The translations under genes and the position numbers were made by a program. From Candidatus Iainarchaeum sp. (GTDB lineage Archaea > Iainarchaeota > Iainarchaeia > Iainarchaeales > JAGVWC01), in the NCBI GenBank assembly GCA_018304465.1, contig JAGVWC010000010.1:64001-128000 (forward strand): DNA of 64,000 bases. The letters run 5' to 3'. Positions 7,087-36,023 of this stretch are shown piece after piece. Below the pieces are notes generated by a model. That model was not told where the DNA came from, did not search any database, and saw nothing but the letters and a program-made list of their open reading frames with translations. How positions within the stretch are numbered: the stretch's first letter is position 1; every line of letters starts with the position of its first letter.

Positions 7087-7179
7087 ACGAATTCATTCAA
7101 AAAAAAAGTTTTTAATTGTCTTCATGCCACAAGGGGCGTTGAAGAAAAGAAAAAAAATAGAAAAAGAAACCTGCGGGTT

Positions 7180-23231: not shown

Positions 23232-23807
23232 ATGCCGCTTGCTTTAAGACTGGAAACGTACCTCGCGAAAAAAAAACTCACGGCAGTGGAAAAAATCAGC
23301 CGCGGATTTAGTGCCGAAATCTATCTGGTCCAAACCCAAACTGGAAAAAAACGCGCCCTTAAAATCGAACGCGACGACTCGCCGCGACGCGACTTCATTT
23401 ACAAAGAAAGCGAATACCTCAAAATGGCCAACCACGTTCAGGTAGGTCCAAAATTAATCGACGCGGATTATGAAAACCGCGTGGTCCTCATGACATTCGT
23501 GGACGGAATTCCTTTTGGCAAGTGGGCCTTGGAAAAAACCACCACCAAAACCAAACTCAACCGGTGCATCCAATCGCTTTTGAAACAAGCCGACCAATTG
23601 GACCGGATCGGACTCGACCACGGACAACTCGCGGGAAAAGGAAAAAACATTCTGGTGACCAAAACAGGACAACCCGTCATCATTGATTTTGAAAAAGCCT
23701 CACCGGTCCGAAAACCGCATAACCGCGGACAAATTGAAAGCTTTTTATTCAAAAATCCCCATTCTTTCTTGGTCAAAACCGTGAAAGAAAAAACAGGCCG
23801 TGAATGA
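23232..23807 (+). CDS. Archaeal RIO-like Ser/Thr protein kinase
   Basis: RG.SA..Y, ALKIER.DS, VGPKL, LD.IGLDHGQL, VIIDFEKAS. Confidence 0.8.
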   Translation: MPLALRLETYLAKKKLTAVEKISRGFSAEIYLVQTQTGKKRALKIERDDSPRRDFIYKESEYLKMANHVQVGPKLIDADYENRVVLMTFVDGIPFGKWALEKTTTKTKLNRCIQSLLKQADQLDRIGLDHGQLAGKGKNILVTKTGQPVIIDFEKASPVRKPHNRGQIESFLFKNPHSFLVKTVKEKTGRE

Positions 23808-24514
23808 AAATGCCCCAGCGCTTACGAAAAATCGCCGCCAAAGTAAAAAAAATCGTTTCCACCGCGGTCAAAACACAACGCTTAAAATCCAGGCTTAACC
23901 GCGAAATTCGCGCCCTGCAATCAAACCGCAGGACCCATGAAAAAAGAGTCCTTGGCGACATGAACCAGCGCGTCCAACTTATTCACAAAATAAAAAACAC
24001 AGAACCCGGTTTAAAACAGGAAAAATTACGCCGCCGTTTACGAGAAGTATTAACTCAATCGAACCCCGAACACGAAATCGAAAAAATAAACGAGCACTTG
24101 GCCAAAACCGAATCGCAACGCCGAAGACTCAAAAGCGTTTTGCGCGAAAAAAGATTCGGAGGACATCCAAGACGCGATATTCGAGTGCTCAAAGACCGGT
24201 TTCGCACGCGACCCCGGCTTGTTGGCGAACAACTGCGACTCGCGCGGCGCAGGGAAGAATTAAAAGCATGGGAAAAACTTTACCAAGCCCTGCGGGAAGG
24301 CGACATCCAAACGGTTCAAATGCAAAAAACCCAAGAAACGCAAACACGGCAGTCCGAAGAAAAAAAAGGCCGAAGACTCCTCAGTCAATTGGCCGCAAAG
24401 ATGCAAGCCGACATGGCCAGCAAACAGGTGGACGCCCAAACCCAACGAATAATCATTTCAAGGCGCCTCGCCGAATTACGCGTTGCAATTCAAAGAAAAA
24501 AAAGAAAAAAGTGA
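23804..24514 (+). CDS. Highly basic coiled-coil orphan protein
   Basis: 236 aa Arg/Lys-rich; start overlaps kinase stop. Confidence 0.6.
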   Translation: MKMPQRLRKIAAKVKKIVSTAVKTQRLKSRLNREIRALQSNRRTHEKRVLGDMNQRVQLIHKIKNTEPGLKQEKLRRRLREVLTQSNPEHEIEKINEHLAKTESQRRRLKSVLREKRFGGHPRRDIRVLKDRFRTRPRLVGEQLRLARRREELKAWEKLYQALREGDIQTVQMQKTQETQTRQSEEKKGRRLLSQLAAKMQADMASKQVDAQTQRIIISRRLAELRVAIQRKKRKK

Positions 24515-24520
24515 CCGTTT

Positions 24521-24958
24521 TTATTTTCTGAATTTCCGGTCGACTTCGTTGATCAAAACATCACACGCGGCTTTCACGGCTTCCAGCTGCAGGATGATCC
24601 GCTTTCGCTCGTTTTCAATGTCAAGAACGTTTTCGTAGGTTTCGATCGCTTCGCGAAACATTCCACCGTCGACATATGAATACGGATGCTCGTTCATTTT
24701 GGACGTGGTCCGTTCAATCATTTTTCCAAGCCAAATATTCATTTCGTCTTTGACTTGTCCTTTGATTTGTTTTCCCGAATCCAGGTACTTTCGCATCTGG
24801 TTGACCACGGTTGCGCGGGGAAACGGAAGTTTGTCCTCGGGTAATTCCTCGGGAGACGCTTCCACCGATTCGACGGTTTGGCCTACTTCTTCGCTTTCAG
24901 CGGCGTTTTCGGCCGTTTGAACCGCGACTCCATTTGATTTTGCTTCTTTTGCCAACAT
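24521..24958 (-). CDS. Histone-fold protein with acidic N-terminal tail and C-terminal helix
   Basis: LPFPRATVVN.MRK.L...KQI...VK..MN.WL.....R.......Y.YVD...F..AI; GGTGA RBS before ATG 24958. Confidence 0.7.
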   Translation of the reverse strand: MLAKEAKSNGVAVQTAENAAESEEVGQTVESVEASPEELPEDKLPFPRATVVNQMRKYLDSGKQIKGQVKDEMNIWLGKMIERTTSKMNEHPYSYVDGGMFREAIETYENVLDIENERKRIILQLEAVKAACDVLINEVDRKFRK

Positions 24959-25084
24959 ATCACCTTCAAGAAAAACGCATACAAGTAGCATTTTTATATA
25001 CAAAACAAGTGTTACATTCACAATTTAAAGGTGTCGGAGCCCCAAAAAGGCCCTTCCTTTATAAAGAAAAAGGAATTGGAGAAA

Positions 25085-25910: not shown

Positions 25911-25975
25911 GGCCTCAGTTCGCCCATCTCTCCTCACCCCTTGCGGTCAGAGTCATCGTCAGTTCGTCATCGGCC
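25911..25975 (-). ncRNA. Box C/D-type small RNA
   Basis: GGCC-G-ATGACGA(C)-13 nt-CTGA(D')-CCGCAAGGGG-TGAGGA(C')-12 nt-CTGA(D)-GGCC; terminal stem; TTAAAAA box 29 nt upstream. Confidence 0.7.
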
Positions 25976-26202
25976 ATCAGAATAACTGGATAAAAGGTTT
26001 TTAACTGGGCGAGAAGCGGTGTTAGCGCTGGAATCGTGCCGCCCAAAAACAAGCAATTTCAATCATTTTTACCGCCCAAAGCCACCCCTGTTTCAAAATA
26101 AACCTATATTATTGATTTAATGGCTAATTTAATGGCCTTTGTTGATTTTAATTTGCCGCCCAAATGCATACAAATAAATACTATTTCGCGCATATTCTTC
26201 GT

Positions 26203-27156
26203 ATGAGTTATCTGGAAATAAAAAGACGCAATAATGAACGGTACGCGTATTTTGTCAAGAAATGGTCGCTTCAAGGAAAACGCTTTGTGTTGCGACGGTA
26301 TATCGGGAAAGCGACCAGCATGGTTTCCAAAGAGAGTTTTCTATCTAAAAACATGGGCTCATTGGTCGATGAAGAACTCAATTTACGAAAACCGATTTGG
26401 GAAAAAGCAATTTCCATATCGCATGATCCAAGGCAAATCGAGAAAGTCGAAAAAAAAGCGGTCCTGTTAAACGACCTTGTTGACGCTCAAAACGCTCAGC
26501 AACTTGTACGGGCGGAATTCGCCAAGGAATTCATTTATAATTCGAATAACATCGAGGGATCGCGTATACCAAAAGAAAAACTGGTTGAATTGTTCGAAAA
26601 AGGAACAACGTCCTACAAAAACCAAAATGAAGTGACCGAAGTAACGAATTCAATTCGGACTTTCGAGTACTTGGAAAACGATTTTGCATTCACGCTCAAA
26701 AACATCAAGCGTCTTTATTCGATTCTTACGAAAGGACTGTATCTGGAAAATCAAAACCCGTACCCGCGCGGATTCAAAAAAATCGAAATCGTGGTCGGTG
26801 AATCCAGAACCACTGCGCCTGAAGACGTTGAAGAGGAACTCAAAACCCTATTGGCCTGGAACAAAGCAAACGCCAAAACAATGTATCCCCCGCAACGCGC
26901 ATTCGAATTCCACGCACGCTATGAGCACATCCATCCATTCCAAGACGCCAACGGCCGAACCGGAAGACTTCTCCTGAACAAAATCCTGCTGCAAAACAAC
27001 TATCCGCCGATCATTGTCTATAAAGACAACAAGACGGCCTATTTCAATTCCATCAAGGAAACACAAGAAGGAAACAAAAGCAAATACTATCAATTCATGC
27101 TCGAACAAACCGAGAAGACCTACGACCAAATGATCGGCATCCTGAAAAAATACTAA
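26203..27156 (+). CDS. Fic family protein
   Basis: HPFQDANGRTGR catalytic motif and SNNIEG inhibitory motif. Confidence 0.92.
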   Translation: MSYLEIKRRNNERYAYFVKKWSLQGKRFVLRRYIGKATSMVSKESFLSKNMGSLVDEELNLRKPIWEKAISISHDPRQIEKVEKKAVLLNDLVDAQNAQQLVRAEFAKEFIYNSNNIEGSRIPKEKLVELFEKGTTSYKNQNEVTEVTNSIRTFEYLENDFAFTLKNIKRLYSILTKGLYLENQNPYPRGFKKIEIVVGESRTTAPEDVEEELKTLLAWNKANAKTMYPPQRAFEFHARYEHIHPFQDANGRTGRLLLNKILLQNNYPPIIVYKDNKTAYFNSIKETQEGNKSKYYQFMLEQTEKTYDQMIGILKKY

Positions 27157-27162
27157 AAAGAG

Positions 27163-27206
27163 ATTATCAGAAGTAGATAGCGGTAATAGTCAGTTCGTCA
27201 TCGGCC
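27163..27206 (-). repeat. Island repeat copy (core plus TTANC-N13-GATAA arm)
   Basis: GGCCGATGACGAACTGACTATTACCGCTATCTACTTCTGATAAT. Confidence 0.85.
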
Positions 27207-27277
27207 AACAAAGACGTGCAGGCAGGATTGTTTAAACAGAATTAAATTCCTAATTTCCCCTATCGAATATTGTCTCG

Positions 27278-27670
27278 TTAAATCGACTCTTGTTCGACAC
27301 CAGCATTCATTCGCCATTTGTATAAGGCTAATCCAAGTAGGTATGGCACTCCAAGAGCCCCATAATACAATCCGGCCACTTGCCATAACCCGTAATAGAA
27401 CTCCAATGTACGCGCAATGGCAATTCCTTGCGTGAGAATTACACTGATTCCAAATACAACGGAAAAAACAATTCCGACCCACTTGAAAACTTCCGATAGT
27501 TTTTCAGCAGACGGCGGCCTCCCTTTGCTTTTTACCCCCGCATGAAAAAAGCCGATGGTGATTAATGGCGCGGGAACAAGCAGCACAGCAGAATTCATCC
27601 ACACCTGAAAAGGAGGAAGAATCAAGAAAAATAATTCCGCAACAATAAGCACCACAAGTTCTTGTTTCAT
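27278..27670 (-). CDS. Hypothetical membrane protein (4 TM)
   Basis: Hydrophobic ORF with GGTGA RBS, downstream of MNT. Confidence 0.65.
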   Translation of the reverse strand: MKQELVVLIVAELFFLILPPFQVWMNSAVLLVPAPLITIGFFHAGVKSKGRPPSAEKLSEVFKWVGIVFSVVFGISVILTQGIAIARTLEFYYGLWQVAGLYYGALGVPYLLGLALYKWRMNAGVEQESI

Positions 27671-27682
27671 GTTTGGGTCACC

Positions 27683-28012
27683 CTATGCTATCTTGGTCCC
27701 CGTGTCGAGGGCTGTTTTGACGATTCCGAGCTGGGTTTTTCGTTGCTCGATTTCTTTTGGAGTGTAGCAAAAAGGCTCGATGTCTTGGCCGATGGGTTCG
27801 GTGGATAATTGCAGTATTTGGTCGATTCGGTTTCGAAAGGTTATTCCTTCGAATTGATTAGAGATAATCAGGATATCCCAGTCGCTGTCGTTGCGTTCTT
27901 CTCCTCTGGCTCTCGAACCGAATAGAATGATTTGTGCCGGAAGAAACCGTTGTTTGATTCGAGCCACCAGTTTTTGGACTGGTTCGCTTATTCTAATTTT
28001 TTTTCCAACCAT
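27683..28012 (-). CDS. Minimal nucleotidyltransferase (MNT antitoxin)
   Basis: IILFGSRARG....DSDWDILII...YTP.E. Confidence 0.9.
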   Translation of the reverse strand: MVGKKIRISEPVQKLVARIKQRFLPAQIILFGSRARGEERNDSDWDILIISNQFEGITFRNRIDQILQLSTEPIGQDIEPFCYTPKEIEQRKTQLGIVKTALDTGTKIA

Positions 28013-28368
28013 GTAATCAACTCTTTGGCGTCCATCAAAATTTCTTTGGTGATTTTTTCGTCGTAAGTTTTGGCGGGCAAATCGCCAGCCGCATCAGGAT
28101 AGCGGCTGATGATGAAATCACGGGATAGTTTGCGCGCTTTGGAAAGAAGGTTTTCGGGGACTCCGATGAGTTCTCCGAGTTCGCGCAAGTTATGAAGGTT
28201 TGGCGGGCTTTGGTTTTTTTGGAACATGAAAACGGCTTTCATGGCTTTTTCGACAGCTTGCTGGCAGAGAAAAGCGCAGACATAATAGTATTTGGTTTTG
28301 TAGTTGGATTCCGCAGCCTGCAGGTCGATTTGGGCTTGTTCCATCCATATTTCGATTTCCCGACGCAT
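27988..28368 (-). CDS. HEPN domain protein
   Basis: W..QA..DL..A, F.CQQAVEKA.KA, HNL..L, SRYPD. Confidence 0.9.
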   Translation of the reverse strand: MRREIEIWMEQAQIDLQAAESNYKTKYYYVCAFLCQQAVEKAMKAVFMFQKNQSPPNLHNLRELGELIGVPENLLSKARKLSRDFIISRYPDAAGDLPAKTYDEKITKEILMDAKELITWLEKKLE

Positions 28369-28427
28369 ACAAGAGTTCTCGTTTAAAGTTGTTTTAAACC
28401 TTTGGAAAAAGATATGACACTGACTAC

Positions 28428-28455
28428 TTCACGGTCATTGTGAGTTGAACATCAA
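28428..28455 (-). repeat. Degenerate island repeat copy
   Basis: GTTGATGTTCAACTCACAATGACCGTGA vs GCCGATGACGAACTGACGATGACTCTGA (about 19/28 by eye), at a module boundary. Confidence 0.4.
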
Positions 28456-28560
28456 CACCCGTTATTGGTGTTACTCACTTTCATGGGCAAAACTTGCCAA
28501 TAACAAAACAATCATGCGGCGAAGTGGTTAAAATTCGGTCGCTAAACCGAGAGTGGCGGT

Positions 28561-29136
28561 TCATTCCCTGTGTTTGAACACTAGCCCGTAGTGGTGCGGG
28601 GGTAAATCGTATTTTTTGTGGAGTGTTAGCCCTGCTTTTTTTGCCCATTGTATTATTTGTTCTGGTTTTGGTCGGATTTGCATTGGTGGGCCTCTTGGCG
28701 TGGTGGGGTCGTAATTCCAGTGTATTACTGCAACAGTTCCGTTTGGGTTCAGTATTCTGCTGGCTTCGACTAGCAAGCCAACGGGGTTTTCGCCGTGCAG
28801 GATGTTGAATAGTAAGACATGCTGGACTGAATTGTCTTTGAGGCCAGTGCCGTTTCTTGAAACATCTCTTTTGAGCGTTTTAATGTTTTTCAGGTTTTTT
28901 TGTCTTGCTTGCGCTTTTAGGCGTTCAATCATTTCTGGGTCTATCTCGATTGCGAACACCGTTTCCTTAGTTCTTCTTGCTGCTGGAATGGTGAAGGTTC
29001 CATAGCCACTTCCGACATCGACTATGTGGCCTTCTTTTACCCCCAAAGTTTCAAGTATTTTTCGGGGTTTGAAGAATTTTTTCCAATGGTGTTCTTGCGG
29101 CATTCCGCTTTCTCTATACTTTGGGATTATGATCAC
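28561..29136 (-). CDS. Class I SAM-dependent methyltransferase
   Basis: VDVGSGYGTF, FAIEID, LFNILHGE, IHW....TPRGP. Confidence 0.88.
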   Translation of the reverse strand: MIIIPKYRESGMPQEHHWKKFFKPRKILETLGVKEGHIVDVGSGYGTFTIPAARRTKETVFAIEIDPEMIERLKAQARQKNLKNIKTLKRDVSRNGTGLKDNSVQHVLLFNILHGENPVGLLVEASRILNPNGTVAVIHWNYDPTTPRGPPMQIRPKPEQIIQWAKKAGLTLHKKYDLPPHHYGLVFKHRE

Positions 29137-29456
29137 CCGACTGTGAGTATTTTGTCTGAGTCTTCAACCAGATTAAGCAAATCTTTCATTGTTGAAATCG
29201 GGCAGACATTGCTTCCTTCCTTGTGCCTTGACTGGAGGCAGGTGCCGCAGGCCAATATTTTGCCCTTGTTCTGGATGAATGCGGTAATTTGTTCTTTCAC
29301 ACCATATTTTTCGTTTTCGGTATCTTCGGCTTCAACGCCCTCGTTTATGAGAAAAACCGTTACGCCATGATTTGCTTTGAGGGCAGTCACTCCGAACCTG
29401 AACGCGTTCCAGGCTTTTTCAGGTTCTTTAGTGCTTAAAACAATGCCAACTTTCAT
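29133..29456 (-). CDS. DsrE family protein
   Basis: EPEKAWNAFRF, VFL..EGVE, ILACGTCL..R, CPISTM.DL. Confidence 0.88.
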   Translation of the reverse strand: MKVGIVLSTKEPEKAWNAFRFGVTALKANHGVTVFLINEGVEAEDTENEKYGVKEQITAFIQNKGKILACGTCLQSRHKEGSNVCPISTMKDLLNLVEDSDKILTVG

Positions 29457-29953
29457 TTTTTCCCATCCTTTCTTTTGAATAGCAAATAAATGTTGAGCGC
29501 AATTGACGCCACCAGCAGCAACCAAAAAACAAGGTTATCCAAATAAAACGGGTTTTGCCAATAGCCTCCCAGCCCTGTTGCCCATTGCATCATCCAAGGC
29601 CCCATCATTCCCGGCCCCGTTGAGCCTATGCTTGAGCCATTGAAGCAGTGCAAATAGCTCTTGCCCATAGAAATATGCACGGCTTGCAAGGATTCAGACC
29701 CCTCGCCACCAAGCATAGCATCCATTGTTTCATGCGCCGCACCTGGATGCATTTGCTCCATTAAAGAATCTCCCAATTCTTCAAACTGAAGGTCGCTTAC
29801 CTTGCCGCAATTGATTTGACTGGCATTTGATATTCCTTGCGTGGACATTATTTCCGAGAAAACGGTTTCAACGCTTGGAATGCTTTCCGCGGCAAAAACG
29901 CCTAAAGAAAACAACAACAAAAACAACAAATTGGCAGCAGCCAACTTTTTCAT
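29453..29953 (-). CDS. Secreted/membrane protein with Met/His-rich segments
   Basis: Signal peptide, E.LGD..ME.MHPG..HE.MD.M.GGEGS, GMMG, C-terminal TM. Confidence 0.7.
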   Translation of the reverse strand: MKKLAAANLLFLLLFSLGVFAAESIPSVETVFSEIMSTQGISNASQINCGKVSDLQFEELGDSLMEQMHPGAAHETMDAMLGGEGSESLQAVHISMGKSYLHCFNGSSIGSTGPGMMGPWMMQWATGLGGYWQNPFYLDNLVFWLLLVASIALNIYLLFKRKDGKK

Positions 29954-30273
29954 TTTACCACCCCGCGAACCATTTTCTGCCTGCTTTGAATCTGTTCAAG
30001 CAAAACCTCGCGAATCAGGTTGCACGCCTTCACCATTTTGGGAAAAGCGATTTTGTAATAAACCGCAGTGCCGTCTTTCCTGCTTGCAATAACCTCTTTC
30101 AGTCTCAGGATGGCGAGATGCTGCGAAAGATTCGCCTGCCTCAGGCCAGTTTGTTTGGCAAGCTCGGAAACAGATTTCTCGCCCTCGCCAAGCAAATAAA
30201 GGATTTTCAAGCGTTTTTTATCCGCCAGCGTCTTGCACAACTCTGCATGCATGCCAAATAAATCGTCATTCAT
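29950..30273 (-). CDS. ArsR/SmtB family transcriptional regulator
   Basis: KTLA..KRL.IL.LL..GEKSV.EL....Q.NLSQHLA.LR....V.Y. Confidence 0.92.
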   Translation of the reverse strand: MNDDLFGMHAELCKTLADKKRLKILYLLGEGEKSVSELAKQTGLRQANLSQHLAILRLKEVIASRKDGTAVYYKIAFPKMVKACNLIREVLLEQIQSRQKMVRGVVK

Positions 30274-30322
30274 ATATTCAAATATACGAATACAACAATA
30301 TTTAAAACATAATGTGTGCGGA

Positions 30323-30334
30323 TCAGTTCGCCCA
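30323..30334 (-). repeat. 3' fragment of the C/D RNA (TGGGCGAACTGA)
   Basis: 12 bp identical to 25915-25926, located between ArsR and SBP modules. Confidence 0.55.
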
Positions 30335-30398
30335 ACTGCTCCGAAAGACGAAGAATTATTTACATTTCTTAAGTTCTTGAGAATGCGCTTTTGGGCAG

Positions 30399-31478
30399 TT
30401 AAGGAAAATTTACTGGTGTACGATATCCTGCCGTGACAAAGACAAGTTCTATTTGTGCCTCACCGTATTGGTTAAACACAATTGGCCCGGCAACTCCATT
30501 TATTTTCAGTTCCTGAACAGTGCCCTTTGTTATCTGCTTTTTGACAAGTGCATCCAAAACTAACATAAGATCATAGCCATAATGCGCAACAAAATCCGGC
30601 TCCGAGCCGTATTGGCTTTTGAAAGCAGCCCTAAATTGCTCCGCTTTTCCAGATTCAACTAATGCAGATGGAACCAACGAATAAACTTCTCCAAGCAGCC
30701 CCTTGGCGTTTTCCTGGACAAAGTTGCTTTGAATATCTTCTGTGGAAACCACCGGAATATTTTCCATTCCCAATTCTGACCTTTGCTTTAAAAAATTCAA
30801 AGCATGCGGAGGATAACCCAGAAAAAAGATTGCGTCCGGGTTTGTGGCTTTTATTTTGCTAAGTGTTGTTCTAAAATCAGTTTGTGATAACTGGTAATTT
30901 TCTTGAATAAGAATCTCTCCCCTGAATTCATCTTTAAACTTTTTTTGCATTGCCTGACCAAACTCATCCTGAATTATCAGAAGCGCAACTTTTTGATATT
31001 GTTTTTTATCCAAAAAATTAACAATTTTGGAAATCTGGTCACTTGGAAGCGGATACATCAGGAAGGCATATTCGCTCTTTCGCGTGTATTCAGATGGATC
31101 CAAGGAAGTCAAAGCTGCAAATACCGGAATGCTGTGCTGTTCCGCAATCGGAAGAATCGGGGAAACATGAAGCGCCTGGATTGTCAATATGACACCGGCT
31201 TGATTTGAGTCAATAAGATTGTTCAATGCAGTAACAGCTTCTTTTGGGTCTGTTTTTGTGTCTTCAATATGCAAAGCCAAATCTGAATTGTTTAAATCTT
31301 TCTGGGCAAGTTCCATTCCTCGAAAAAAATCCTGCCCAAGCGAAGCAGCGGGTCCAGTCTGTGGAATCAAGACAGCAATATTTAATTTTTCCTGCGAATC
31401 AGGTTCATTATTTTGGACACATCCGCTAAAAGCAACTATTGCCACAGTCAATACAAGCAGTAGAAAACCTGTTTTCAT
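30399..31478 (-). CDS. ABC transporter substrate-binding lipoprotein (LivJ-like), stand-alone
   Basis: Lipobox FSGC, IAVL.P.TG..A.LG, EDT..DPK.A, DFRT.L.KIK..NPD, YGYD. Confidence 0.88.
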   Translation of the reverse strand: MKTGFLLLVLTVAIVAFSGCVQNNEPDSQEKLNIAVLIPQTGPAASLGQDFFRGMELAQKDLNNSDLALHIEDTKTDPKEAVTALNNLIDSNQAGVILTIQALHVSPILPIAEQHSIPVFAALTSLDPSEYTRKSEYAFLMYPLPSDQISKIVNFLDKKQYQKVALLIIQDEFGQAMQKKFKDEFRGEILIQENYQLSQTDFRTTLSKIKATNPDAIFFLGYPPHALNFLKQRSELGMENIPVVSTEDIQSNFVQENAKGLLGEVYSLVPSALVESGKAEQFRAAFKSQYGSEPDFVAHYGYDLMLVLDALVKKQITKGTVQELKINGVAGPIVFNQYGEAQIELVFVTAGYRTPVNFP

Positions 31479-31511
31479 GCATTTACAATATTATTTTTTA
31501 AATTTAAAAAT

Positions 31512-31641
31512 CCCTCGGTGCGCCCAGCTTTCGTCATCGCCGTCACGTCCGGCGCGTACGGGCACTAGCGCACTACGTTCGATAGGGCTGCTTGCTGCGC
31601 CTTTAGACCGACTCAGAGTCATCCTCAGTTCATCATCGGCC
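31512..31641 (-). ncRNA. Second box C/D-like RNA copy with long structured insert
   Basis: GGCCG-ATGATGA-ACTGAGGATGACT-CTGA-about 75 nt-ATGACGA-AAGCTGGGCGCA-CCGA; TTTAAA about 33 nt upstream. Confidence 0.55.
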
Positions 31642-31694
31642 AGTAGTCTATAGGTAATACAAAAGGAATTTAAAGAAACAAACAGAAAATGGGT

Positions 31695-32639
31695 TCATGC
31701 TATTTCGGCGGGTACTCTTTTGGGAACGCCAGATGGGCGAATTCTTTCTCGTGTTTCGATGGATGCAAGCAGAGAGTCCAGTGCTTGTTGTCCTTGGGCC
31801 GTTTTTCCTTTGAAGAACTTGTGATATGCGTGTCTGGCAAAAAAGTAGGTGTCCCAAAACTCTTTGTTTCGTAAAAAAGACTGAACTATTTCTCTGTCGG
31901 GATATGCCCGCAAAAAGTAGTATGGGTTTTGGGTGAATCGAATGAATTTTCCCAAATCCATTTCCGCAATTCCCAATTTTATTGTAAGGTCGTCAATCAT
32001 GATTATTCTTCCGTTGGGAGTTCGAACGATATTTTGGGGGGCAAAATCGTCATGAATATAACGAATGTTAAACTGTCGGGGGAATGCAGCTGAAAATCTT
32101 CCCCTTATCGCTCTGCCTTGCTTGGCTGAAAGTATCTTTTTTTGTTCGAGGAAAGAAATATATGCGTTAAATTCTTTTCGGAGGCTCCGGCGCATAAGAA
32201 GGTTTTGAAATATTTTTTTCTGTGGTGAAACCCCGTGGAGGGAATGAAGGGCTTTGCTGATTTTTCGGGTATCCGCAATTGTTTCTGATTCTCGAAGGTC
32301 GTTTCCGGGCGTGAATTCGGAAAAAACAACGTTCTTGTACCTCCCAATGACCGGTCTCACTGCCGCCCCCTGTGATTGCATCTGGTCGTGCAATCGTACC
32401 CGTTGGCGAGGGCTTGCTTCTCGTCCGTAGCGATTTTGAAGCAAACGTGCACTAATCCTTCTGCCATCTGGAAATTGCAGGACAAAAACGTGCCCTTTTG
32501 GAGAAAGCGGTTCAACAGAAACGGGCCGTTCTCCAAGGCTAATTTGTGCGATGTCCGAAAAGAAAGTGAGAGGACTCGTTATATCGCTTTTTTTGAATGC
32601 ACGCTTCAGTGCATATTGAAGTCGTTTTCCCGCTTTCAT
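31695..32639 (-). CDS. Aminoglycoside phosphotransferase/kinase-like protein with basic N-terminus
   Basis: L..LH, YIHDDFAPQNI, IMIDD, EMDLG. Confidence 0.75.
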   Translation of the reverse strand: MKAGKRLQYALKRAFKKSDITSPLTFFSDIAQISLGERPVSVEPLSPKGHVFVLQFPDGRRISARLLQNRYGREASPRQRVRLHDQMQSQGAAVRPVIGRYKNVVFSEFTPGNDLRESETIADTRKISKALHSLHGVSPQKKIFQNLLMRRSLRKEFNAYISFLEQKKILSAKQGRAIRGRFSAAFPRQFNIRYIHDDFAPQNIVRTPNGRIIMIDDLTIKLGIAEMDLGKFIRFTQNPYYFLRAYPDREIVQSFLRNKEFWDTYFFARHAYHKFFKGKTAQGQQALDSLLASIETRERIRPSGVPKRVPAEIA

Positions 32640-32706
32640 GCTCACAACTAGACATACTTTTATGAATAAAATCTTTTCTTTGCGGAAACGGCGGTCCAAT
32701 CGGCAT

Positions 32707-32750
32707 ATTATCTAGACGTGTTCTGGTTAATCGTCAGTTCATCATCGGCC
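32707..32750 (-). repeat. Island repeat copy (core plus TTANC-N13-GATAA arm)
   Basis: GGCCGATGATGAACTGACGATTAACCAGAACACGTCTAGATAAT. Confidence 0.85.
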
Positions 32751-32789
32751 GTTCAATGTTGTATGCAAAGGAATTTTAACAACTATTTT

Positions 32790-33014
32790 TCATTCAAGCA
32801 GCCTAAAGAATTCGTCTTTGTTCATACGCAAGTCTTCTTTAATGATTTTGGTCAGCAAATGGGGGCCGATGGGTTCGTTTCCATGCACAGGAACTGACGT
32901 CTTGCGTCCATCCGGATGCTCGAACCGATAATGGCTTCCACGTGAACGCGTTTCGACAAAACCAAGTTTTTTGAGTGCACGAAACAAATCGCGTGGCGAC
33001 AAGGTTTGGGTCAA
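32790..33014 (-). CDS. hicA: HicA toxin
   Basis: L.KLGF...R.RGSH....HPDGR.T.VP.H. Confidence 0.9.
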   Translation of the reverse strand: MTQTLSPRDLFRALKKLGFVETRSRGSHYRFEHPDGRKTSVPVHGNEPIGPHLLTKIIKEDLRMNKDEFFRLLE

Positions 33015-33017
33015 AAA

Positions 33018-33227
33018 TTACACCCGAACGATCTGGATTCCCACAAAATCAGTTTTAACATCGACAGGCGCGTCTTCAAGGCACAACAAGATGACTTCCT
33101 TGACGCGTTCAATAAGCGCATCCATGGTTTTGGCTTGGGTATGGCAACCCTGTAATTCAGGAACATCGGCTACGAGCCAACCCGCTTCATCCTGCTCGAT
33201 AATGACTTTAAATTCCCTCGACATCAT
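33018..33227 (-). CDS. hicB: HicB antitoxin
   Basis: F.VIIEQDE.G..VA.VPEL.GCHTQAKT...L..R.KE.I.LCLE. Confidence 0.9.
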   Translation of the reverse strand: MMSREFKVIIEQDEAGWLVADVPELQGCHTQAKTMDALIERVKEVILLCLEDAPVDVKTDFVGIQIVRV

Positions 33228-33451
33228 TTCACATTAAAAATAACCCCAAAACAATATAAAAACGGCTCTTTTTCGGCAAACAACGACTATGAATATTTGC
33301 CCAGATTAAAAGAAAAAAGTATTACAGAGAATCACCGGTGTTCTCGGACTATTTCGACCACTGAATTAGTCAAACAAAGAAAACCCAATGATTCTTTTAT
33401 GAATAATAGGAATCTCCATTGCATATGCCGGCATTTAACTTGCCGGTCGCT

Positions 33452-33586
33452 TTAAATCTTGTCAGGAGCATTTTGGAGCGATTTCGCACACTTTTCTTTC
33501 CAGTATACGCGTTCTTCCAGAATCCACTGTTTTTCTTTTTCCAGTTCCGCCAAATCAATCTTCAAAAGCTTCAACCCTTCTTGCAT
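33452..33586 (-). CDS. Short hypothetical ORF or gene remnant (44 aa)
   Basis: MQEGLKLLKIDLAELEKEKQWILEERVYW...; below ORF-track cutoff. Confidence 0.35.
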   Translation of the reverse strand: MQEGLKLLKIDLAELEKEKQWILEERVYWKEKCAKSLQNAPDKI

Positions 33587-33718
33587 AACAGCACTCTGCA
33601 TCAACAATATCTACAAACGAAGTTTAACCTTTGTGTGATTACAAAAGAAATGGAGCGGATGAGCAAACGAATCTAACACCCCATCGTTTACCCAATTATG
33701 GTAAAAAAGAAAATAAGA

Positions 33719-34396
33719 TTATTTTTTTCGTAGATGAAAAAATTTACAGATCAGTTGGTTACCGACCCCCATACCTAAGAACGCCCCCTTGAGCACTTCA
33801 AATCCCAGTTCTTCTAGCCTCTTTTTTTGTTGGTTAAGAAGATCGAAATCCGATCCTCGCAGACCGTACAAGTTACCCACTTCTTGATTGACCAACAATT
33901 CGCCTCCCGACAGGAGAATTCGATGCGCTTCTTTGACAGAAGATTCAAAATCACTGTGTGTCAATCCAAAGTACGAGTAAATCAAATCGAAATGATTGGC
34001 TGGAAAACGGGTTTTTTCCGCATGAGCGACGCGAAAGGCGACCGTCCGGTATTTTTTCCAAGAATCCAATCGCTTCAAACTCAATCCATGCGCCTTAATA
34101 TTCGGAAAATCTGCGGCCAGTTGGGAAATCGCTTCTCCGTCCAAACAACCGAGATCCAAGACGCGAATTTGGCGTGTTCCCGCGCACATTTGAAGGTTTT
34201 GAACTATTGAGGAAAACTTTGCTCGAAAATCCGATTCGATAGCCCGAAGCGGGGTTCTTCTGACACTCCACAAATCAGACGGCGAACCACCATAACGAAG
34301 CGATTGCCAATCTTTCTTCCGGTCTTGGCGAAGTCGTTTCCCCAATCGTCGCCGCTTTAAAGCGTCTTCAGGACTACGTGGCTTTCGGAAATTCAT
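33719..34396 (-). CDS. Class I SAM-dependent methyltransferase with basic N-terminus
   Basis: VLDLGC.DG, FP.N.FDLIYS, E..RIL..GG. Confidence 0.82.
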   Translation of the reverse strand: MNFRKPRSPEDALKRRRLGKRLRQDRKKDWQSLRYGGSPSDLWSVRRTPLRAIESDFRAKFSSIVQNLQMCAGTRQIRVLDLGCLDGEAISQLAADFPNIKAHGLSLKRLDSWKKYRTVAFRVAHAEKTRFPANHFDLIYSYFGLTHSDFESSVKEAHRILLSGGELLVNQEVGNLYGLRGSDFDLLNQQKKRLEELGFEVLKGAFLGMGVGNQLICKFFHLRKK

Positions 34397-34467
34397 GCAG
34401 AAAAAAGAAGACAAGAGAAATTATAAAACCAGAAGAGTACTGGATGAGCACAGAACCGAATTTTATG

Positions 34468-34510
34468 TTATCAAGAGTAGTTCTCGATAATAGTCAGTTC
34501 GTCATCGGCC
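34468..34510 (-). repeat. Island repeat copy at right border (core plus near-palindromic arm)
   Basis: GGCCGATGACGAACTGACTATTATCGAGAACTACTCTTGATAA. Confidence 0.85.
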
Positions 34511-34536
34511 ACAACCAAAGTTATCGGAAAAAAAAA

Positions 34537-34935
34537 TTACTGCGATCCGGCCGGAAAATCAATCCGCAATTCCTGGGCGATGTTTTGAAATCCCATTCCC
34601 TTGTACCAAGCATGCGCGCGGGTTTCGGGATGCTTACTCGTGCAAATCAGTTTGTAACACCCGTGTTCGGCCGCGCCTTCGATGACCCTTTTTACGATGG
34701 CGGTTCCATACCCTTTTCCGCGAAAGTCGTCATGGACAAACACGTCTTCCATGAAACCCCACGGTTCGGAATGCAAATCGTTTTTGAGCACGTACAGATA
34801 CGCGCGCGCGATTTCGATTCCATCCGAAGCGATCACGTACTTGATTCCTTTGGCCGGAGCCGCATAGTCGGTGATTTCAACGGACACATTTTCCAGGGTA
34901 TATAATTTAGTTATAATATTTATATTTGTTTTCAT
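34537..34935 (-). CDS. GNAT family N-acetyltransferase
   Basis: MEDVFV....RGKGYG..IV, GCYKLI, WY..MGF. Confidence 0.88.
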   Translation of the reverse strand: MKTNINIITKLYTLENVSVEITDYAAPAKGIKYVIASDGIEIARAYLYVLKNDLHSEPWGFMEDVFVHDDFRGKGYGTAIVKRVIEGAAEHGCYKLICTSKHPETRAHAWYKGMGFQNIAQELRIDFPAGSQ

Positions 34936-36023
34936 TTCCACTTTAAACGCTGGCGAAAACGCGAAAACGAACCCGATTCGATCTCTTCGCGGATACGTGT
35001 CATCAAGTGCTGGATGAAAAAAAGATTGTGAAACGACAAGTACTTCATGCCGTTTTCCTCCCCCGTCCGAAACAAATGATGCACATACGCGCGCGAATGC
35101 GATTCGCACACAAAACACGCGCACTCGGAATCAATCGGCGACAAATCAAACCGATGCGACCTGTTCGCCAAATTAATCCGGCCTTTACGGGTAAACGCCA
35201 AGCCATGCCGGCCGGTTTGCGTCGGAAACGCGGAATCAAAACAATCCACTCCCAGCGAAACCGCCATGACCAATTGCTCCGGCGTGCCAACTCCCATCAA
35301 ATACCGCATTTTTTCCGGATCCATCTCTTTCGTGTCGATCGGAACCATTTTTTCCACCCAATGACTCGGCTCGCCGATCGCAAGCCCCCCCAAGGCCAAA
35401 CCGTCAAACGGAAGCGAATTCATCAATTCCGCGGATTTCTTTCTGAGTTTCGCGTTTGTTCCGCCTTGCGCGATTCCAAACAACAACTGCCGCTTGTTTT
35501 CATGCGCATCCAAACACCGTTTTCCCCATTCAAACGTCCGGTGCATGGATTCGGTCAACCGCGCGATCGATGAACCCGGAAGCGGCATGTCATCCAAACA
35601 CATCGCCACATCGCTTTTCAACCGGTTCTGAATCACCATGGCTTTTTCCGGCGTTAACACATCCAATGCCTGATCAAACGGATTTCGAAACGTCACGCCG
35701 CGATCATCGATCTTTTGAAAAAACTCGGGGCGAATCACCTGAAAACCCCCGGAATCCGTGAAAATTCCGCGATCCCAGCCCACGAACTTGTGCAATCCCC
35801 CCGCTTTTTTCACCACGTCTAAACCCGGGCGCAAAGAAAACACGTAACTATTCGAAATAAACGCTTCGATTCCAATGGATCGCAATTCTTCCATCGAAAC
35901 CAGTTTCACGGAACCCTTGGTCGCCACCGGCATGAAAAAAGGCGTTTTGATTTTGCCATGCGCCGTGGTTAACGTTCCCACGCGGGCGTCTTTGTCCGAC
36001 ACGCCCAGCGAAAACGCGTTCAT
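34932..36023 (-). CDS. tgt: tRNA-guanine transglycosylase, queuosine (G34) type
   Basis: TPFFMPVAT.G.VK, TDSGGFQV, FGIAQGG, GGLAIGE, RYLMGVG, GVDCFDS, CxCxxC...H zinc site. Confidence 0.93.
   Translation of the reverse strand: MNAFSLGVSDKDARVGTLTTAHGKIKTPFFMPVATKGSVKLVSMEELRSIGIEAFISNSYVFSLRPGLDVVKKAGGLHKFVGWDRGIFTDSGGFQVIRPEFFQKIDDRGVTFRNPFDQALDVLTPEKAMVIQNRLKSDVAMCLDDMPLPGSSIARLTESMHRTFEWGKRCLDAHENKRQLLFGIAQGGTNAKLRKKSAELMNSLPFDGLALGGLAIGEPSHWVEKMVPIDTKEMDPEKMRYLMGVGTPEQLVMAVSLGVDCFDSAFPTQTGRHGLAFTRKGRINLANRSHRFDLSPIDSECACFVCESHSRAYVHHLFRTGEENGMKYLSFHNLFFIQHLMTRIREEIESGSFSRFRQRLKWK

Follow-up and report, generated by a model that had tools for sequence, protein, structure and literature searches.

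A probable array of small accessory-gene cassettes upstream of a predicted box C/D sRNA gene in a DPANN archaeon

Introduction

How do unrelated gene modules come to lie between copies of the same small-RNA sequence? The question is raised by an island in a 64,000-nucleotide stretch of archaeal DNA (the window), in which short direct repeats separate toxin-antitoxin (TA), methyltransferase, and other genes. The original prediction described the island as a hotspot where modules are added by recombination at a small RNA gene. Positions 25911–34545 of the window probably form an array in which six small cassettes of accessory genes lie directly upstream of an sRNA gene (Table 1).

Table 1. Features of the putative cassette array and its flanks.
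Feature	Position	Strand	Details
Left flank: GNAT acetyltransferase and tRNA-guanine transglycosylase (TGT)	34537–36023	−	Pfam
First P′ unit, left edge of island	34458–34545	−	core 34510–34494; R1 65.8 bits
Cassette 1: SAM methyltransferase (33719–34414), HicB (33018–33227), HicA (32790–33014)	32786–34457	−	Pfam
P′ unit	32698–32785	−	core 32750–32734; R1 66.3 bits
Cassette 2: APH-like kinase fold, ORF 31695–32699	31679–32697	−	Pfam APH, E 6e-4, sub-cut-off
sRNA*: second sRNA copy and promoter	31510–31678	−	R1 33.2 bits
Cassette 3: periplasmic solute-binding protein (30399–31478)	30343–31509	−	Pfam Peripla_BP_6, E 7e-39
3′ remnant of sRNA copy (D guide and box D)	30323–30342	−	12 nt TGGGCGAACTGA identical to canonical gene
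Cassette 4: ArsR (29950–30273), DsrE-like (29133–29525), SAM methyltransferase (28561–29136)	28490–30322	−	Pfam
Cassette 4: 166-aa protein, no family match	29453–29953	−	Pfam
Degenerate P′ unit	28405–28489	−	core decayed, inverted repeat ATGAC..GTCAT retained; R1 22.7 bits
Cassette 5: HEPN (27988–28368), MNT nucleotidyltransferase (27683–28012)	27242–28404	−	Pfam
Cassette 5: 130-aa protein, no family match	27278–27670	−	Pfam
P′ unit, then T5 and T6 runs	27154–27241	−	core 27206–27190; R1 61.1 bits
Cassette 6: Fic-domain protein (26164–27156)	26011–27153	+	Pfam Fic, E 8.6e-16
Promoter-like region of sRNA	25976–26010	−	TTAAAA ~24–29 nt before first G; R1 alignment 26010–25948
Canonical box C/D sRNA, array anchor	25911–25975	−	direct reading, orthologue alignment
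Right flank: 166-aa protein (24521–25021, −), RIO-like kinase (23232–23807, +)	23232–25021		tblastn

Results

A pattern search of the window returns five matches to GGCCGATGAYGAACTGASKAT without mismatches, all on the minus strand, with 5′ ends at 25975, 27206, 31641, 32750, and 34510. None of 100 shuffled controls gave any match, and the five cores in one orientation that had been reported are thus reproduced. The length of the repeat core is 17–21 nt. When up to two substitutions are allowed, the 17-mer core occurs only at the same five sites in the genome of 1,246,008 bases in 15 contigs. The motif is therefore confined to the island, as had been claimed from the window, and is not scattered regardless of accessory genes. 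The degenerate copy noted at 28455 is real (covariance model R1, E 7e-4), and the reported 12-bp 3′ fragment has two matches in the window, one within the sRNA (25926–25915) and one at 30334–30323 of the minus strand, whereas chance would give none. All copies are intergenic in the ORF map, and Pfam agrees with the module names given earlier. The G+C content of the island is 0.40–0.45, compared with 0.47–0.51 in the flanks.

The core corresponds to the 5′ end of a true box C/D guide RNA, which is conserved across an Iainarchaeales-like DPANN order. In order, the sRNA is composed of a GGCC stem, box C GATGACGA, the D′ guide ACUGACGAUGACU, a D′ box CUGA, a short stem-loop, a C′-like GUGAGGA, the D guide, a D box CUGA, and the closing GGCC stem. 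In an alignment of 18–19 orthologues, the guides do not vary and the terminal stem covaries (GGCC/GGCC, TGCC/GGCA, and GTCT/AGAC), and 13 of 14 positions of the D′ guide, 12 of them Watson–Crick, pair with 16S rRNA of the same genome. These observations agree with the box C/D identity proposed originally, and the RNA is predicted to guide 16S rRNA methylation in Iainarchaeales-like DPANN archaea. The match of Rfam sR2 CD-box to the sRNA is weak (22 bits, E 0.18, under the gathering score). Its position and conservation in A2 and A3 suggest that the TTAAAA preceding the sRNA is a TATA box.

The earlier description of the repeat as the 5′ end of a box C/D RNA holds for the core; however, the repeats are longer than first seen. 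The copies at 34510, 32750, 27206, and 28455 share ~30 nt beyond the core, which form an imperfect inverted repeat, and the repeat unit, here called P′, is therefore ~48 nt long with a TATA-like box in addition. In a P′ unit, the TATA-like box lies at about −27 and is followed by the core and by a diverged D′ guide with its D′ box, and the imperfect inverted repeat (10 bp, 5-nt spacer) ends in TAATATA. It carries the first 17–18 nt of the sRNA, which include the terminal stem, box C, and the start of the D′ guide, and the left arm of the inverted repeat is the diverged rest of the D′ guide with the D′ box. Judged from these parts, the P′ unit is half a copy of the sRNA, equipped with a putative promoter and an inverted repeat. 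The units in the window share 17–21 identical nucleotides and are 55–71% identical over ~48 nt. In P′ cores generally, the 4-nt stem goes with that of the resident sRNA. The inverted repeat folds weakly: only one of the four units in the window does better than shuffled sequences (z −3.3; the others −0.97, +0.90, and 0.00). Covariation is modest, with 81% of cells paired compared with 76% after shuffling, and with double changes in three of nine pairs.

The copy at 31641 had been counted among the 5′-end repeats. It has the core but is not merely a 5′ end: it belongs to a second whole sRNA, sRNA* (31641–~31510), with a ~70-nt G+C-rich insert between D′ and C′. The core of sRNA* is followed by a D′ guide with one change (GAGGAUGAC), a D′ box CUGA, the insert, C′ GAUGACGA, a diverged D guide, a D box CCGA, and a T run. 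The 16S rRNA site is no longer found with the altered D′ guide. The sole sRNA copy of genome G026 has a long insert resembling that of sRNA*. Cassette 3 lies between the 3′ end of sRNA* and the 3′ remnant, which suggests an insertion at a 3′ end; at least one further kind of insertion, at the 3′ end of the sRNA, seems to be mixed into the island.

The upstream part of the first P′ unit consists of the GNAT stop codon and a T9 run, which replace the usual TTTAAA. Cassette 1 contains 490 nt without a called family besides its three genes and may be two fused cassettes; HicBA by itself forms a 0.6-kb cassette in G115, and no decayed site was detected inside cassette 1 by R1 with filters off. The kinase of cassette 2 matches the NCBIfam thiamine-kinase model with E 8e-4, far under the cut-off. 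The Fic gene is the only plus-strand gene among the 13 genes of the island. Homologues of the right-flank genes adjoin the sRNA in G119, G026, G057, and G037 (55–75% identity, tblastn), and synteny is thus kept in other families.

The core with up to two mismatches is present in 58 of 196 genomes, and most of the matching relatives have a single copy; R1 at E ≤ 1e-3 matches 42 of 151 genomes of the order. In ~10 families, P′ units border small cassettes upstream of the orthologous sRNA. Full units, with sequences read by eye, were recognized in families f1, f11, f12, f16, f20, f23, f24, f26, f27, and f28, and the P′ alignment (n = 30) comprises the window, nine genomes, and six further contigs, two of them from G105 and G107. 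On contigs that carry both P′ units and an sRNA-type copy, the sRNA lies downstream in the same orientation (G000, G026, G100, G115, G028, and G105). The same polarity is found in L077, G060, G043:C10, G013, and G059, with L067 as the sole exception. The 45 intervals between units measure 337–4304 bp (median 800 bp), 23 of them being at most 800 bp and six longer than 2 kb. They encode PIN, DUF2204 nucleotidyltransferase, HicAB, HEPN/MNT, ArsP, MntP, and thioredoxin/DsbD proteins and methyltransferases. Such cargo, in which TA modules, methyltransferases, and metal genes are represented, is what accessory cassettes typically carry. The genes in the cassettes have no preferred orientation (39 co-oriented and 55 opposite among 94 crude ORFs); therefore, the P′ units are not a common cassette promoter, unlike that of an integron.

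Gene content at orthologous loci is not identical among relatives, as the cassettes of genus g42 demonstrate. The left-flank ABC-F gene is common to G105, G043, and G107 (79–82% nucleotide identity), and G105 and G043 additionally share the right-side sRNA; between the flank points, only P′ units match in the three genomes. Loci G043:C17 and G106:C95 have both flanks and one cassette in common, and the former has two additional cassettes and the latter one other. Homology between G043 and G106 extends from the first base of a core to ~33 nt inside the next unit. The breakpoints of gain and loss thus map to the repeats, within P′ units, as had been anticipated. Junction positions deduced from comparisons of loci span −5 to +29, counted from the first base of the core. 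Homologues of a cassette encoding proteins of 55 aa and 203 aa (DUF2204-like) are found in the arrays of G043, G106, and metagenome contig L077, and also adjoin P′ units in G118 and G121; HicBA cassettes are present in G000, G115, and G179. Together with the restriction of the repeat to the island, this turnover and its breakpoints support the predicted hotspot. The nearest relative, G002 of the same family, has a TGT homologue 8.4 kb upstream of its single sRNA; the genes upstream of that sRNA are larger and different, and no P′ unit is present, so that this lineage provides no clean empty site.

The sRNA is used by at least two additional types of insert. Two genomes of one genus, G128 and G129, share the upstream region and core; these run into the sRNA in G129 but into another arm in G128, where NUDIX and TraG/HerA-like ATPase genes come next. 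In G044, an sRNA copy is followed ~45 nt on by a tyrosine integrase, the layout that this integrase family has at tRNA genes.

As predicted, no recombinase is encoded at the locus: none was found in or beside any array examined, namely in the 45 intervals or their 4-kb flanks, as judged from the best 25 of 45 families. Recurrent flank families are tRNA-splicing endonuclease, class I aaRS, ABC-F ATPase, and Fic. By a rough count, the tRNA-type integrase family is present in 12 of 21 P′-bearing genomes and in 73 of 175 others, and its occurrence does not follow that of P′ units. No gene of the genome scores above the cut-off for an integron integrase (best 116.5 bits versus 265, on an intein-bearing XerA-like gene), and the repeats lack attC architecture, in line with the expectation that they are not attC sites. 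No P′ unit or sRNA copy was found on circular, plasmid, or virus sequences in IMG/VR, where 9 and 64 pattern matches were all judged to be chance or coding.

Discussion

In this small groundwater archaeon, six modules are bounded by copies of the front end of a putative ribosome-modifying sRNA gene, and other modules occupy the same repeats in relatives, which points to a gene-capture site of an undescribed kind. Serial recombination at the 5′ end of the sRNA by an enzyme acting in trans is the best reading of the repeats, the sRNA identity, the conservation of P′ across families, and the turnover within units, and it is considered rather probable. Repeated conservative recombination would yield the observed layout. 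One partner would be a cassette with one attP-like P′ unit, and the other the attB-like 5′ end of the resident sRNA gene. The P′ arm of the incoming cassette would stay on the upstream copy, and the sRNA would receive a new promoter and 5′ end from the cassette, so that the housekeeping RNA would remain intact and still be a target for the next event. The exchange would be site-specific, with a crossover presumably inside the first ~18 nt and a recombinase that may recognize the inverted repeat. Since none is encoded in or adjoining any array examined, the enzyme would be encoded elsewhere.

Alternatively, P′ units could be decayed half-copies of the sRNA without a dedicated recombinase, and ordinary homologous recombination or gene conversion between repeats of 50–90 nt, for example with DNA taken up from relatives, could exchange the cassettes. 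The spread of the junctions is as compatible with such exchange as with a fixed crossover, the units of g42 are ~85% alike over ~90 nt, a sufficient length, the terminal site of G043 is a hybrid joined past the D′ box, and no array has a recombinase nearby. However, the identical stretches and the region of overall similarity in the window units are short for homologous exchange, and this alternative does not account for the origin of an initial half-copy, with a new promoter, in front of an intact sRNA. Across ten families, the inverted repeat and TAATATA persist despite different cargo, which favours selection acting on the site itself. Exchange by homology alone is considered unlikely. A role of the P′ units as functional small-RNA genes or 5′ leaders that regulate or insulate the adjacent accessory genes, each with a promoter, box C half-RNA, hairpin, and often a T run, is improbable; on that view, the array would stem from a regulatory module duplicated locally rather than from a recombination site. 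The adjacent genes are unrelated to one another and occur in both orientations, the presence or absence of a cassette is coupled to one unit, the same cassettes recur in different arrays, and units are restricted to polar arrays terminating in an sRNA copy. These properties have to be set against the TATA-like box at a fixed distance in every unit, the archaeal-terminator-like T5–T9 runs after the hairpin (f20, 27206, and 28455), and some old units that keep the hairpin without the core (L087:5049, L035:2926, and L091:4429).

Two further explanations carry very little weight. Repeats similar to sRNAs and with an inverted repeat are known from Pyrobaculum calidifontis (PMC6009581), and an sRNA-derived MITE-like element of the kind described there could have inserted between the genes of an older island. 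This is very improbable: the genome has no copies outside the island, the units lack terminal inverted repeats at both ends and target duplications, and orthologous loci differ by whole gene modules rather than by ~90-bp insertions. That the array is a classical integron or CALIN whose attC sites are unusual is scarcely credible, even though it has small, TA-rich cassettes and sites of one genome resemble each other more than those of different genomes, a trend also reported for attCs of archaea (PMC9668308). Besides the integrase score under the cut-off and the two orientations of cassette genes, the A2 consensus has no GTTRRRY/RYYYAAC boxes and the repeat is 25 nt long, compared with 55–140 nt for attC.

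The locus resembles tRNA and tmRNA islands at the att sites of tyrosine integrases in that partial direct repeats of a small RNA gene border each insert, the intact gene is at one end, and inserts are stacked in one orientation; moreover, the tRNA-type integrase family of these archaea adjoins the sRNA copy in G044. By contrast, the target here is a predicted box C/D guide RNA, its 5′ end with a new promoter is duplicated rather than, as usual there, the 3′ end, the inserts are mostly shorter than 2 kb and without an integrase, and the arm on the side of the element consists of an inverted repeat that is conserved. The pdif modules or IMEX are recombinase-free, often carry TA or resistance genes between short inverted-arm sites, and presumably use host Xer in trans. 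The cassettes described here are likewise recombinase-free between short inverted-arm sites, with a presumed host enzyme in trans; however, the sites are direct repeats instead of alternating. Sites of the dif type have 11-bp arms and a 6-bp spacer (PMC2958812), whereas the arms here are 10 bp, the spacer is 5 nt, and the region shared with the target is outside the inverted repeat. In Pyrobaculum, duplicated, composite, and MITE-like C/D box sRNA genes have been described (PMC6009581, the main text of which does not contain the word "integration"), and partial or rearranged copies, including half-copies, shape local genome structure as they do here; however, those copies are dispersed, without gene cassettes between them. 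Integron arrays and CALINs, which have been reported from archaeal metagenome-assembled genomes as well (PMC9668308), also have cassettes of one or two genes, often TA, with one recombination site each, a fixed platform site, contents that differ between close relatives, and greater similarity of sites within a genome. The array described here differs from them in having no IntI, attC architecture, or common Pc promoter logic, in carrying genes in both orientations, and in its site, which appears to be a half-copy of a functional RNA gene with its own promoter.

Organization of the island

The island is an array of accessory-gene cassettes that lack a recombinase and are anchored on a box C/D sRNA gene; such arrays are widespread in one order of DPANN archaea. 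In what follows, G denotes a genome (G000 is the source genome and the others are relatives), C a contig of a genome, L a fetched locus or contig, f a family, g a genus, and X a sequencing run. The core repeat, GGCCGATGAYGAACTGASKAT, has five exact copies in the window, all on the minus strand, and 100 dinucleotide-preserving shuffles gave no match. The original prediction that the repeat is restricted to the island holds for the whole assembly of 15 contigs and 1,246,008 bases, in which the window corresponds to C15:64001-128000: even with two substitutions allowed, the 17-mer matches nowhere but at the same five places. The degenerate copy at 28455 and the 12-nt fragment are also real, and every copy is intergenic in the map of open reading frames. 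Pfam upheld the gene names first given to the island, whose 13 genes all lie on the minus strand except one; no match in Pfam or NCBIfam was obtained for the 166-aa synteny partner or the other unassigned proteins. The G+C content of the island is 0.40-0.45, compared with 0.47-0.51 on either side. One other kilobase of low G+C content occurs in the window, and a tRNA gene is the sole Rfam match at gathering score there.

Coordinates of features in the window, the source genome, and related genomes
Feature	Sequence	Coordinates	Strand	Remarks
Island	window	25911-34545		bordered by GNAT and TGT and, at the opposite edge, by a 249-aa protein
Core copies (5' ends)	window	25975, 27206, 31641, 32750, 34510	-
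Box C/D sRNA gene	window	25975-25911	-	65 nt, begins with the core
sRNA*	window	31641 (5' end)	-	second, insert-bearing sRNA copy
sRNA 3' remnant	window	30334-30323	-	12 nt
Decayed P' unit	window	28489-28405	-	22.7 bits with R1
Methyltransferase (cassette 1)	window	within 32786-34457	-	Pfam
HicA + HicB (cassette 1)	window	within 32786-34457	-	Pfam
APH-like kinase	window		-	weak Pfam match
Periplasmic binding protein (cassette 3)	window	30343-31509	-	Pfam
Methyltransferase + DsrE + 166-aa protein without family match + ArsR	window		-	Pfam
130-aa protein without family match + MNT + HEPN	window		-	Pfam
Fic	window		+	Pfam
Weak R1 match	window	26338-26414	+	18 bits, E 0.016
Coiled-coil-like open frame	window	33453-33587	-	~44 aa
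Low-G+C kilobase	window	39000-40000		G+C 0.375
tRNA gene	window	13728-13802	-	Rfam
16S rRNA	G000	C14:7126-8619
D' guide target in 16S rRNA	G000	C14:7612-7599
XerA-like gene	G000	C6:162321-164450		710-aa open frame
tRNA-adjacent integrase	G000	C7:683-2053/2260		beside intron-bearing tRNA
tRNA-adjacent integrase	G000	C15:2596-4143
tRNA-adjacent integrase	G000	C13:90486-91425		beside tRNA-Ile; broken by two TGA codons
tRNA-adjacent integrase	G045			beside tRNA-Gln
tRNA-adjacent integrase	G001			beside tRNA-Ser
sRNA copy before 414-aa integrase	G044:C15 (L102)	1964-3344		3.4-kb contig
Truncated-sRNA array ends	G043, G106	L038:6613-6707, L087:7505-7607, L088:884-975, L037:2467-2555
Third arm type and insert	G128:C1 (L045)	2918-5693
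Third arm type	G047:C77 (L040)	1-146
Paired sRNA copies	G021:C4 (L033)	5334-7146		1.7 kb apart
Conserved left flank	L017	7975-8502		also L097, L100, L031

The box C/D sRNA gene

The RNA that begins with the copy at 25975 is opened and closed by a GGCC stem. Between the two strands of the stem lie, from 5' to 3', box C GAUGACGA, a D' guide of 13 nt, the D' box CUGA, a small stem-loop, GUGAGGA as a C'-like box, a D guide of 12 nt, and box D CUGA. Box C near the 5' end and box D near the 3' end are thus joined by a short terminal stem. The RNA has the architecture of its class but falls in no curated Rfam family; the only match, to sR2 (RF01139, CD-box), scores 22 bits against a gathering score of 42. 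In an alignment of 19 sRNA copies, the guide segments CTGACGATGA and GATGGGC are invariant, the internal stem-loop is variable, and the terminal stem covaries (GGCC/GGCC, TGCC/GGCA, GTCT/AGAC). The D' guide pairs with the 16S rRNA of the same genome at 13 of 14 positions, 12 of them Watson-Crick, in what we take to be the conserved GUCGUCAGC stretch of helix 34. The predicted methylation would fall on the 16S nucleotide paired to the fifth base of the guide counted upstream from D'. A search for a target of the D guide gave no convincing one. Because of its box C/D layout, conserved guides, covarying stem, and complementarity to 16S rRNA, the gene is predicted to encode a housekeeping guide RNA. 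The core occurs with at most one mismatch in 11 of 61 genomes and with at most two in 58 of 196, and most of the matching relatives, which belong to other families of the same order, have one copy. By analogy with tRNA genes, the sRNA gene would offer a stable and conserved target for insertion.

In the second copy, sRNA*, a G+C-rich insert of ~70 nt separates D' from C', box D reads CCGA, and a T run is present; the D' guide of this copy is changed and the match to 16S rRNA is lost. A similar long insert is present in the sole sRNA of the relative G026.

Structure of the P' unit

The copies at 34510, 32750, and 27206 continue past GGCCGATGAYGAACTGAC with xATTAxCxxGA-N5-TCxxGxTAAT(ATA), a continuation that also adjoins the sRNA in many other genomes. 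Together with the core, it forms the P' unit that bounds the cassettes. In an alignment of 30 P' units, the near-invariant elements are the core, a TATA-like TTTAAA/TTAAAA located ~27 nt upstream, the sequences CAATTA and TAATATA, and an imperfect inverted repeat of 10 bp with a spacer of 5 nt. Of the inverted-repeat cells of the alignment, 81% are paired, compared with 76% in shuffles and at most 52% when the partner is slid. Changes on both sides affect three of the nine pairs, and the 19 double-changed cells compare with 8.6 in shuffles, none of 500 of which reached 19. Folded as RNA, the four units of the window form weak hairpins, one of which beats shuffles.

The left arm of the inverted repeat, ATTAxCCTGA, is a diverged form of the D' guide and D' box of the sRNA (ATGACTCTGA), and the arms in family f16, ACGACGCTGA/TCAGCGTCAT, are near the sRNA sequence of that family. 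This derivation of the left arm indicates that the P' unit is probably a promoter-bearing half-copy of the sRNA gene, the 3' part of which has been replaced. Cores have a similarity of 0.92 within genomes and 0.83 between them, and arms 0.86 and 0.66, respectively. The units of the window are alike in core and arm only, with a similarity of ~0.3 in the promoter region.

The covariance model of the P' unit, R1, recovered three full units in the window at 61-66 bits, the decayed unit, in which the inverted repeat is kept as ATGAC..GTCAT, and both sRNA-type copies. A weak match inside the Fic gene, on the strand opposite to all units, is probably due to chance. Between the methyltransferase and HicB of cassette 1, R1 with filters off found no decayed unit; a short open frame was read by eye in this 490-nt gap.

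Arrays in other genomes

R1 matched 42 of 151 genomes of the order at E <= 1e-3, and the 45 fetched loci contain 86 matches at E <= 0.05. By reading of the sequences, full P' units are present in ten families. Where P' units share a contig with an sRNA-type copy, they lie upstream of it in the same orientation (G026, G100, G115, G028, G105, L077, G060, G043:C10, G013, G059, and the window), with locus L067 as the sole exception to this polarity. The 45 intervals between neighboring co-oriented units are 337-4304 bp long, with a median of 800 bp. Crude open reading frames in these intervals are co-oriented with the units in 39 cases and opposite in 55; therefore, the orientation bias of the window is not general. 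Pfam matched 45 families among 80 open reading frames from loci other than the window; the best 25 include PIN (6), DUF2204 nucleotidyltransferase (5), peptidase S51, HAD, ArsP, MntP, amino-acid kinase, thioredoxin/DsbD, NYN, radical SAM, ArsR, and methyltransferases.

The arrays are flanked by housekeeping genes for tRNA-splicing endonuclease, an aminoacyl-tRNA synthetase, and an ABC-F ATPase. Genes of a tRNA-splicing endonuclease and a class I aminoacyl-tRNA synthetase form a conserved left flank in families f24 and f16. In genus g42, secondary arrays at other loci (G043, G106) end not in a full gene but in a truncated sRNA that stops after the first ~40 nt, the internal stem-loop included. 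About 40 nt beyond these truncated sRNAs is a second promoter-like sequence, TTTATAAAGGGTTTTTGCA.

A scan of public genome contigs gave 11 matching stretches, eight of which are on contigs already in the comparison set; one, L056, looks like a chance match. Several of the public-collection bins with matching contigs are mislabeled as Chloroflexi, Thaumarchaeota, or Falkowbacteria. In a metagenome scan, seven of 19 stretches are true units (L067, L069, L074, L076, L077, L081, L084) and 12 are chance matches.

Turnover of the cassettes

As predicted, the content of the arrays differs among relatives. At the canonical locus of genus g42, G105, G043, and G107 share the ABC-F left flank and hold different cassettes. 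G105 and G043 are 81.5% identical over 1656 nt of the left-hand ABC-F gene and 79% identical in the sRNA to the right; from one flank to the other, only 42-67-nt pieces of units match. The breakpoints of gain and loss map to the repeats, which was also foreseen. At a second g42 locus (G043:C17 and G106:C95), the flanks are 75-84% identical, and a shared cassette encoding proteins of 90 and 80 aa is 88.5% identical; the shared block starts at the first base of a core and stops ~33 nt into the next unit. G043:C17 has two extra cassettes upstream of it, and G106:C95 has one different cassette downstream. The terminal site of G043 is a hybrid, in which a P'-type left arm is joined to the truncated-sRNA tail just past the D' box. 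Two other array contigs of G106 carry homologues (77-83%) of a cassette that G106:C95 lacks.

Related cassettes recur across genomes. DUF2204-like proteins are found in five: G043, G106, and L077 have them in arrays, and G118 and G121 next to P' units; PIN cassettes are found in four; and HicBA cassettes with 52-54% amino-acid identity are present in G000, G115, and G179. G026 and G179, of the same genus, share one cassette at 89%, which precedes the sRNA in G026 and a further unit and cassette in G179. In one metagenome, contigs of 1.2 kb and 39 kb share the P' unit and arm to 5 nt upstream of the core and then diverge. G129 and G128, also congeneric, have the upstream 40 nt and core in common, after which G129 continues with the sRNA. 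In G128, the core leads into a third arm type and then into genes for a protein of 135 aa, NUDIX, and a TraG/HerA-like ATPase; this may be a plasmid-like insert of larger size at the shared site. The third arm type, …ATCTATAGxTTCTATGT…, is common to two families. In the relative G021, two sRNA copies have their first 57 nt in common, and the upstream copy has the canonical promoter and lacks the last ~14 nt. The topology is that of P' units with a much longer shared segment; the two open reading frames between the copies have no family match. The nearest relative, G002, was rejected as an empty site: it has one sRNA, TGT 8.4 kb upstream, unrelated larger genes between them, and no units, and is too distant.

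Contigs assembled from reads of four runs at 2-5x depth contain no core-to-core joint. In three runs (X6, X8, X10), contigs join window position 32757 to 31478 with 16 other letters between, at a depth of 5.5-8.6. On the minus strand, the joint reads as sRNA* and 34 nt, then the 32750 P' unit and the kinase, and is not core-to-core; it could stem from a segment duplicated in tandem, a circle of ~1.3 kb, or a co-occurring strain with its cassettes in another order. Loose ends of single contigs of low depth were also observed: at 31492-31498, with three kinds of foreign sequence (four runs) directly 3' of sRNA*; at 32737, with foreign sequence inside the core of the 32750 unit; and at 33712 (the methyltransferase stop) and 29472 (inside the overlap of DsrE and the 166-aa protein).

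Search for an enzyme and a carrier

In agreement with the original prediction, Pfam identified no recombinase encoded in the island, and none is among the best 25 of the 45 families matched in arrays elsewhere. Neither in the island nor, among the families listed, in the other arrays is an integrase encoded next to an att site. The source genome encodes an XerA-like tyrosine recombinase, the catalytic domain of which is split by an insert of ~400 aa that ends in ...VVHNS and looks like an intein. It also encodes three members of a tyrosine integrase family of ~410-460 aa with an N-terminal FDPH motif, located directly downstream of tRNA genes (L106, L107). Searches for a resolvase and a Y1 transposase in the genome found none. 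R1 detected no P' unit near the XerA-like gene or the tRNA-type integrases, and none of these enzymes is near the island.

The integrase family is present in 74 or 85 of 196 genomes, depending on the search. It occurs in 12 of 21 genomes with P' units and in 73 of 175 others, a rough count that gives no clear link. The metagenome-assembled genomes are incomplete and interrelated, and the P' list is from the 151-genome sample and G106. ARAGORN identified a tRNA in ten of 30 integrase loci of the order. At one of the 30, in G044, a full but diverged sRNA copy precedes the integrase by ~45 nt; the canonical sRNA of this genome is on C5. The position of this copy directly before the integrase suggests that the sRNA is also a target, on its 3' side, of an element of the ordinary kind with its own integrase. 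IMG/VR yielded no episomal carrier: nine stretches from a scan for the P' junction were all in unrelated or coding sequence without a P' arm, and of 64 from a scan for the sRNA guides, four passed a loose box-C filter and none had a stem, promoter, or D box.

Proposed mechanism and alternatives

Starting at the flank, the array has a core, a P' arm, and genes; the set of promoter, core, P' arm, and genes then recurs until a last promoter and core lead into the remainder of the sRNA. This topology most likely results from conservative recombination, as would occur if a circle with promoter, core, and P' arm recombined at the 5' end of the sRNA gene. The crossover would fall within the first ~18 nt, because the units part from the sRNA at position 19 onward (AATTA instead of GATGA in the guide) and the guide must stay intact. 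Although the segment in common with the target does not include the inverted repeat, the repeat is conserved, which suggests that it is a putative binding site of an enzyme or has a structural role, as in attC. The binding-protein module, with the diverged 3' end of sRNA* on one side and the 3' remnant on the other, is possibly what is left of a 3'-side insertion.

Homologous exchange between sRNA-derived repeats, without a dedicated enzyme, would explain why junctions spread from -5 to +29 and why the arrays contain no enzyme; however, identity between units is short in the source genome, and a conserved inverted repeat fits poorly with such exchange. If the P' units were purely regulatory small RNAs, their promoters and the T runs after many of them would be expected, but cassette-wise turnover and the polarity of the arrays would be left unexplained. 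A MITE-like sRNA element was rejected, as the copies are confined to the island, not dispersed, and the inverted repeat is internal to one side. A classical integron or CALIN was likewise rejected for want of IntI, attC boxes, and a uniform cassette orientation. The best score of the integron integrase model TIGR02249 in the source genome (92% complete) is 116.5 bits, against a cut-off of 265, and is on the XerA-like gene. The prediction that the sites are not attC is borne out by the 30-unit consensus, which has no R''-L''...L'-R'/GTTRRRY boxes, and by a repeat of 25 nt instead of 55-140 nt.

The reading of the locus as an accretion hotspot withstood its own tests, and the observation behind it is confirmed and extended. 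We tentatively put forward, as a less likely but real possibility, that Iainarchaeales own an integron-like capture platform. In it, the sRNA gene would be the fixed site, and integrase-free cassettes with a promoter-bearing mimic of the sRNA 5' half and a hairpin site would be inserted, excised, and shuffled by a putative enzyme, possibly a host recombinase or one recruited via the RNA-gene mimic. If so, cassette arrays would have been invented a second time, independently, in archaea with reduced genomes.

DPANN archaea, whose genomes are very small, are believed to rely on hosts; to our knowledge, the acquisition and turnover of their accessory genes are poorly known. The locus is a defined and recurrent place for the exchange of toxin-antitoxin, defense-like, metal, and transport genes in at least ten families of one order, recognizable from sequence alone by a ~50-nt site. 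The P' unit can serve as a search key for mining cassettes from metagenomes and as a substrate for finding the enzyme. The RNA-gene targets of insertion in archaea would extend from tRNAs to a box C/D guide RNA, and integrons would be joined by a second case of recombinase-free cassettes on a platform.

Comparison with known systems

Archaeal integrons use IntI and attC, and Iainarchaeota do not appear in the main text describing them (PMC9668308). Duplicated, composite, and MITE-like C/D sRNA genes are described in Pyrobaculum, with no integration in the main text of that report (PMC6009581). A full-text search of the literature on archaeal C/D box sRNAs with an integration site or integrase yielded no description of such a system, and among the papers listed as mentioning Iainarchaeota with mobile genetic elements, none concerns sRNA-anchored arrays.

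In integrons and CALINs, cassettes are co-oriented and served by one platform promoter, unlike the mixed orientation of the arrays described here, among which the window is nearly uniform. The sites of Xer-dependent modules (IMEX/pdif) resemble the dif of the host. In archaea, published Xer/dif sites consist of two 11-bp arms around a spacer of 6 bp (PMC2958812), compared with 10/5/10 in the P' unit; the dif of the source organism may differ from the published ones. The locus resembles an integrative element of the tyrosine-integrase type at a small-RNA gene in that part of the RNA gene is directly repeated at both ends and the intact gene is kept. However, such an element carries an integrase by its att site, which only the 3'-side element of G044 does here. 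We rate the locus as belonging with RNA-gene integration hotspots and cassette arrays.
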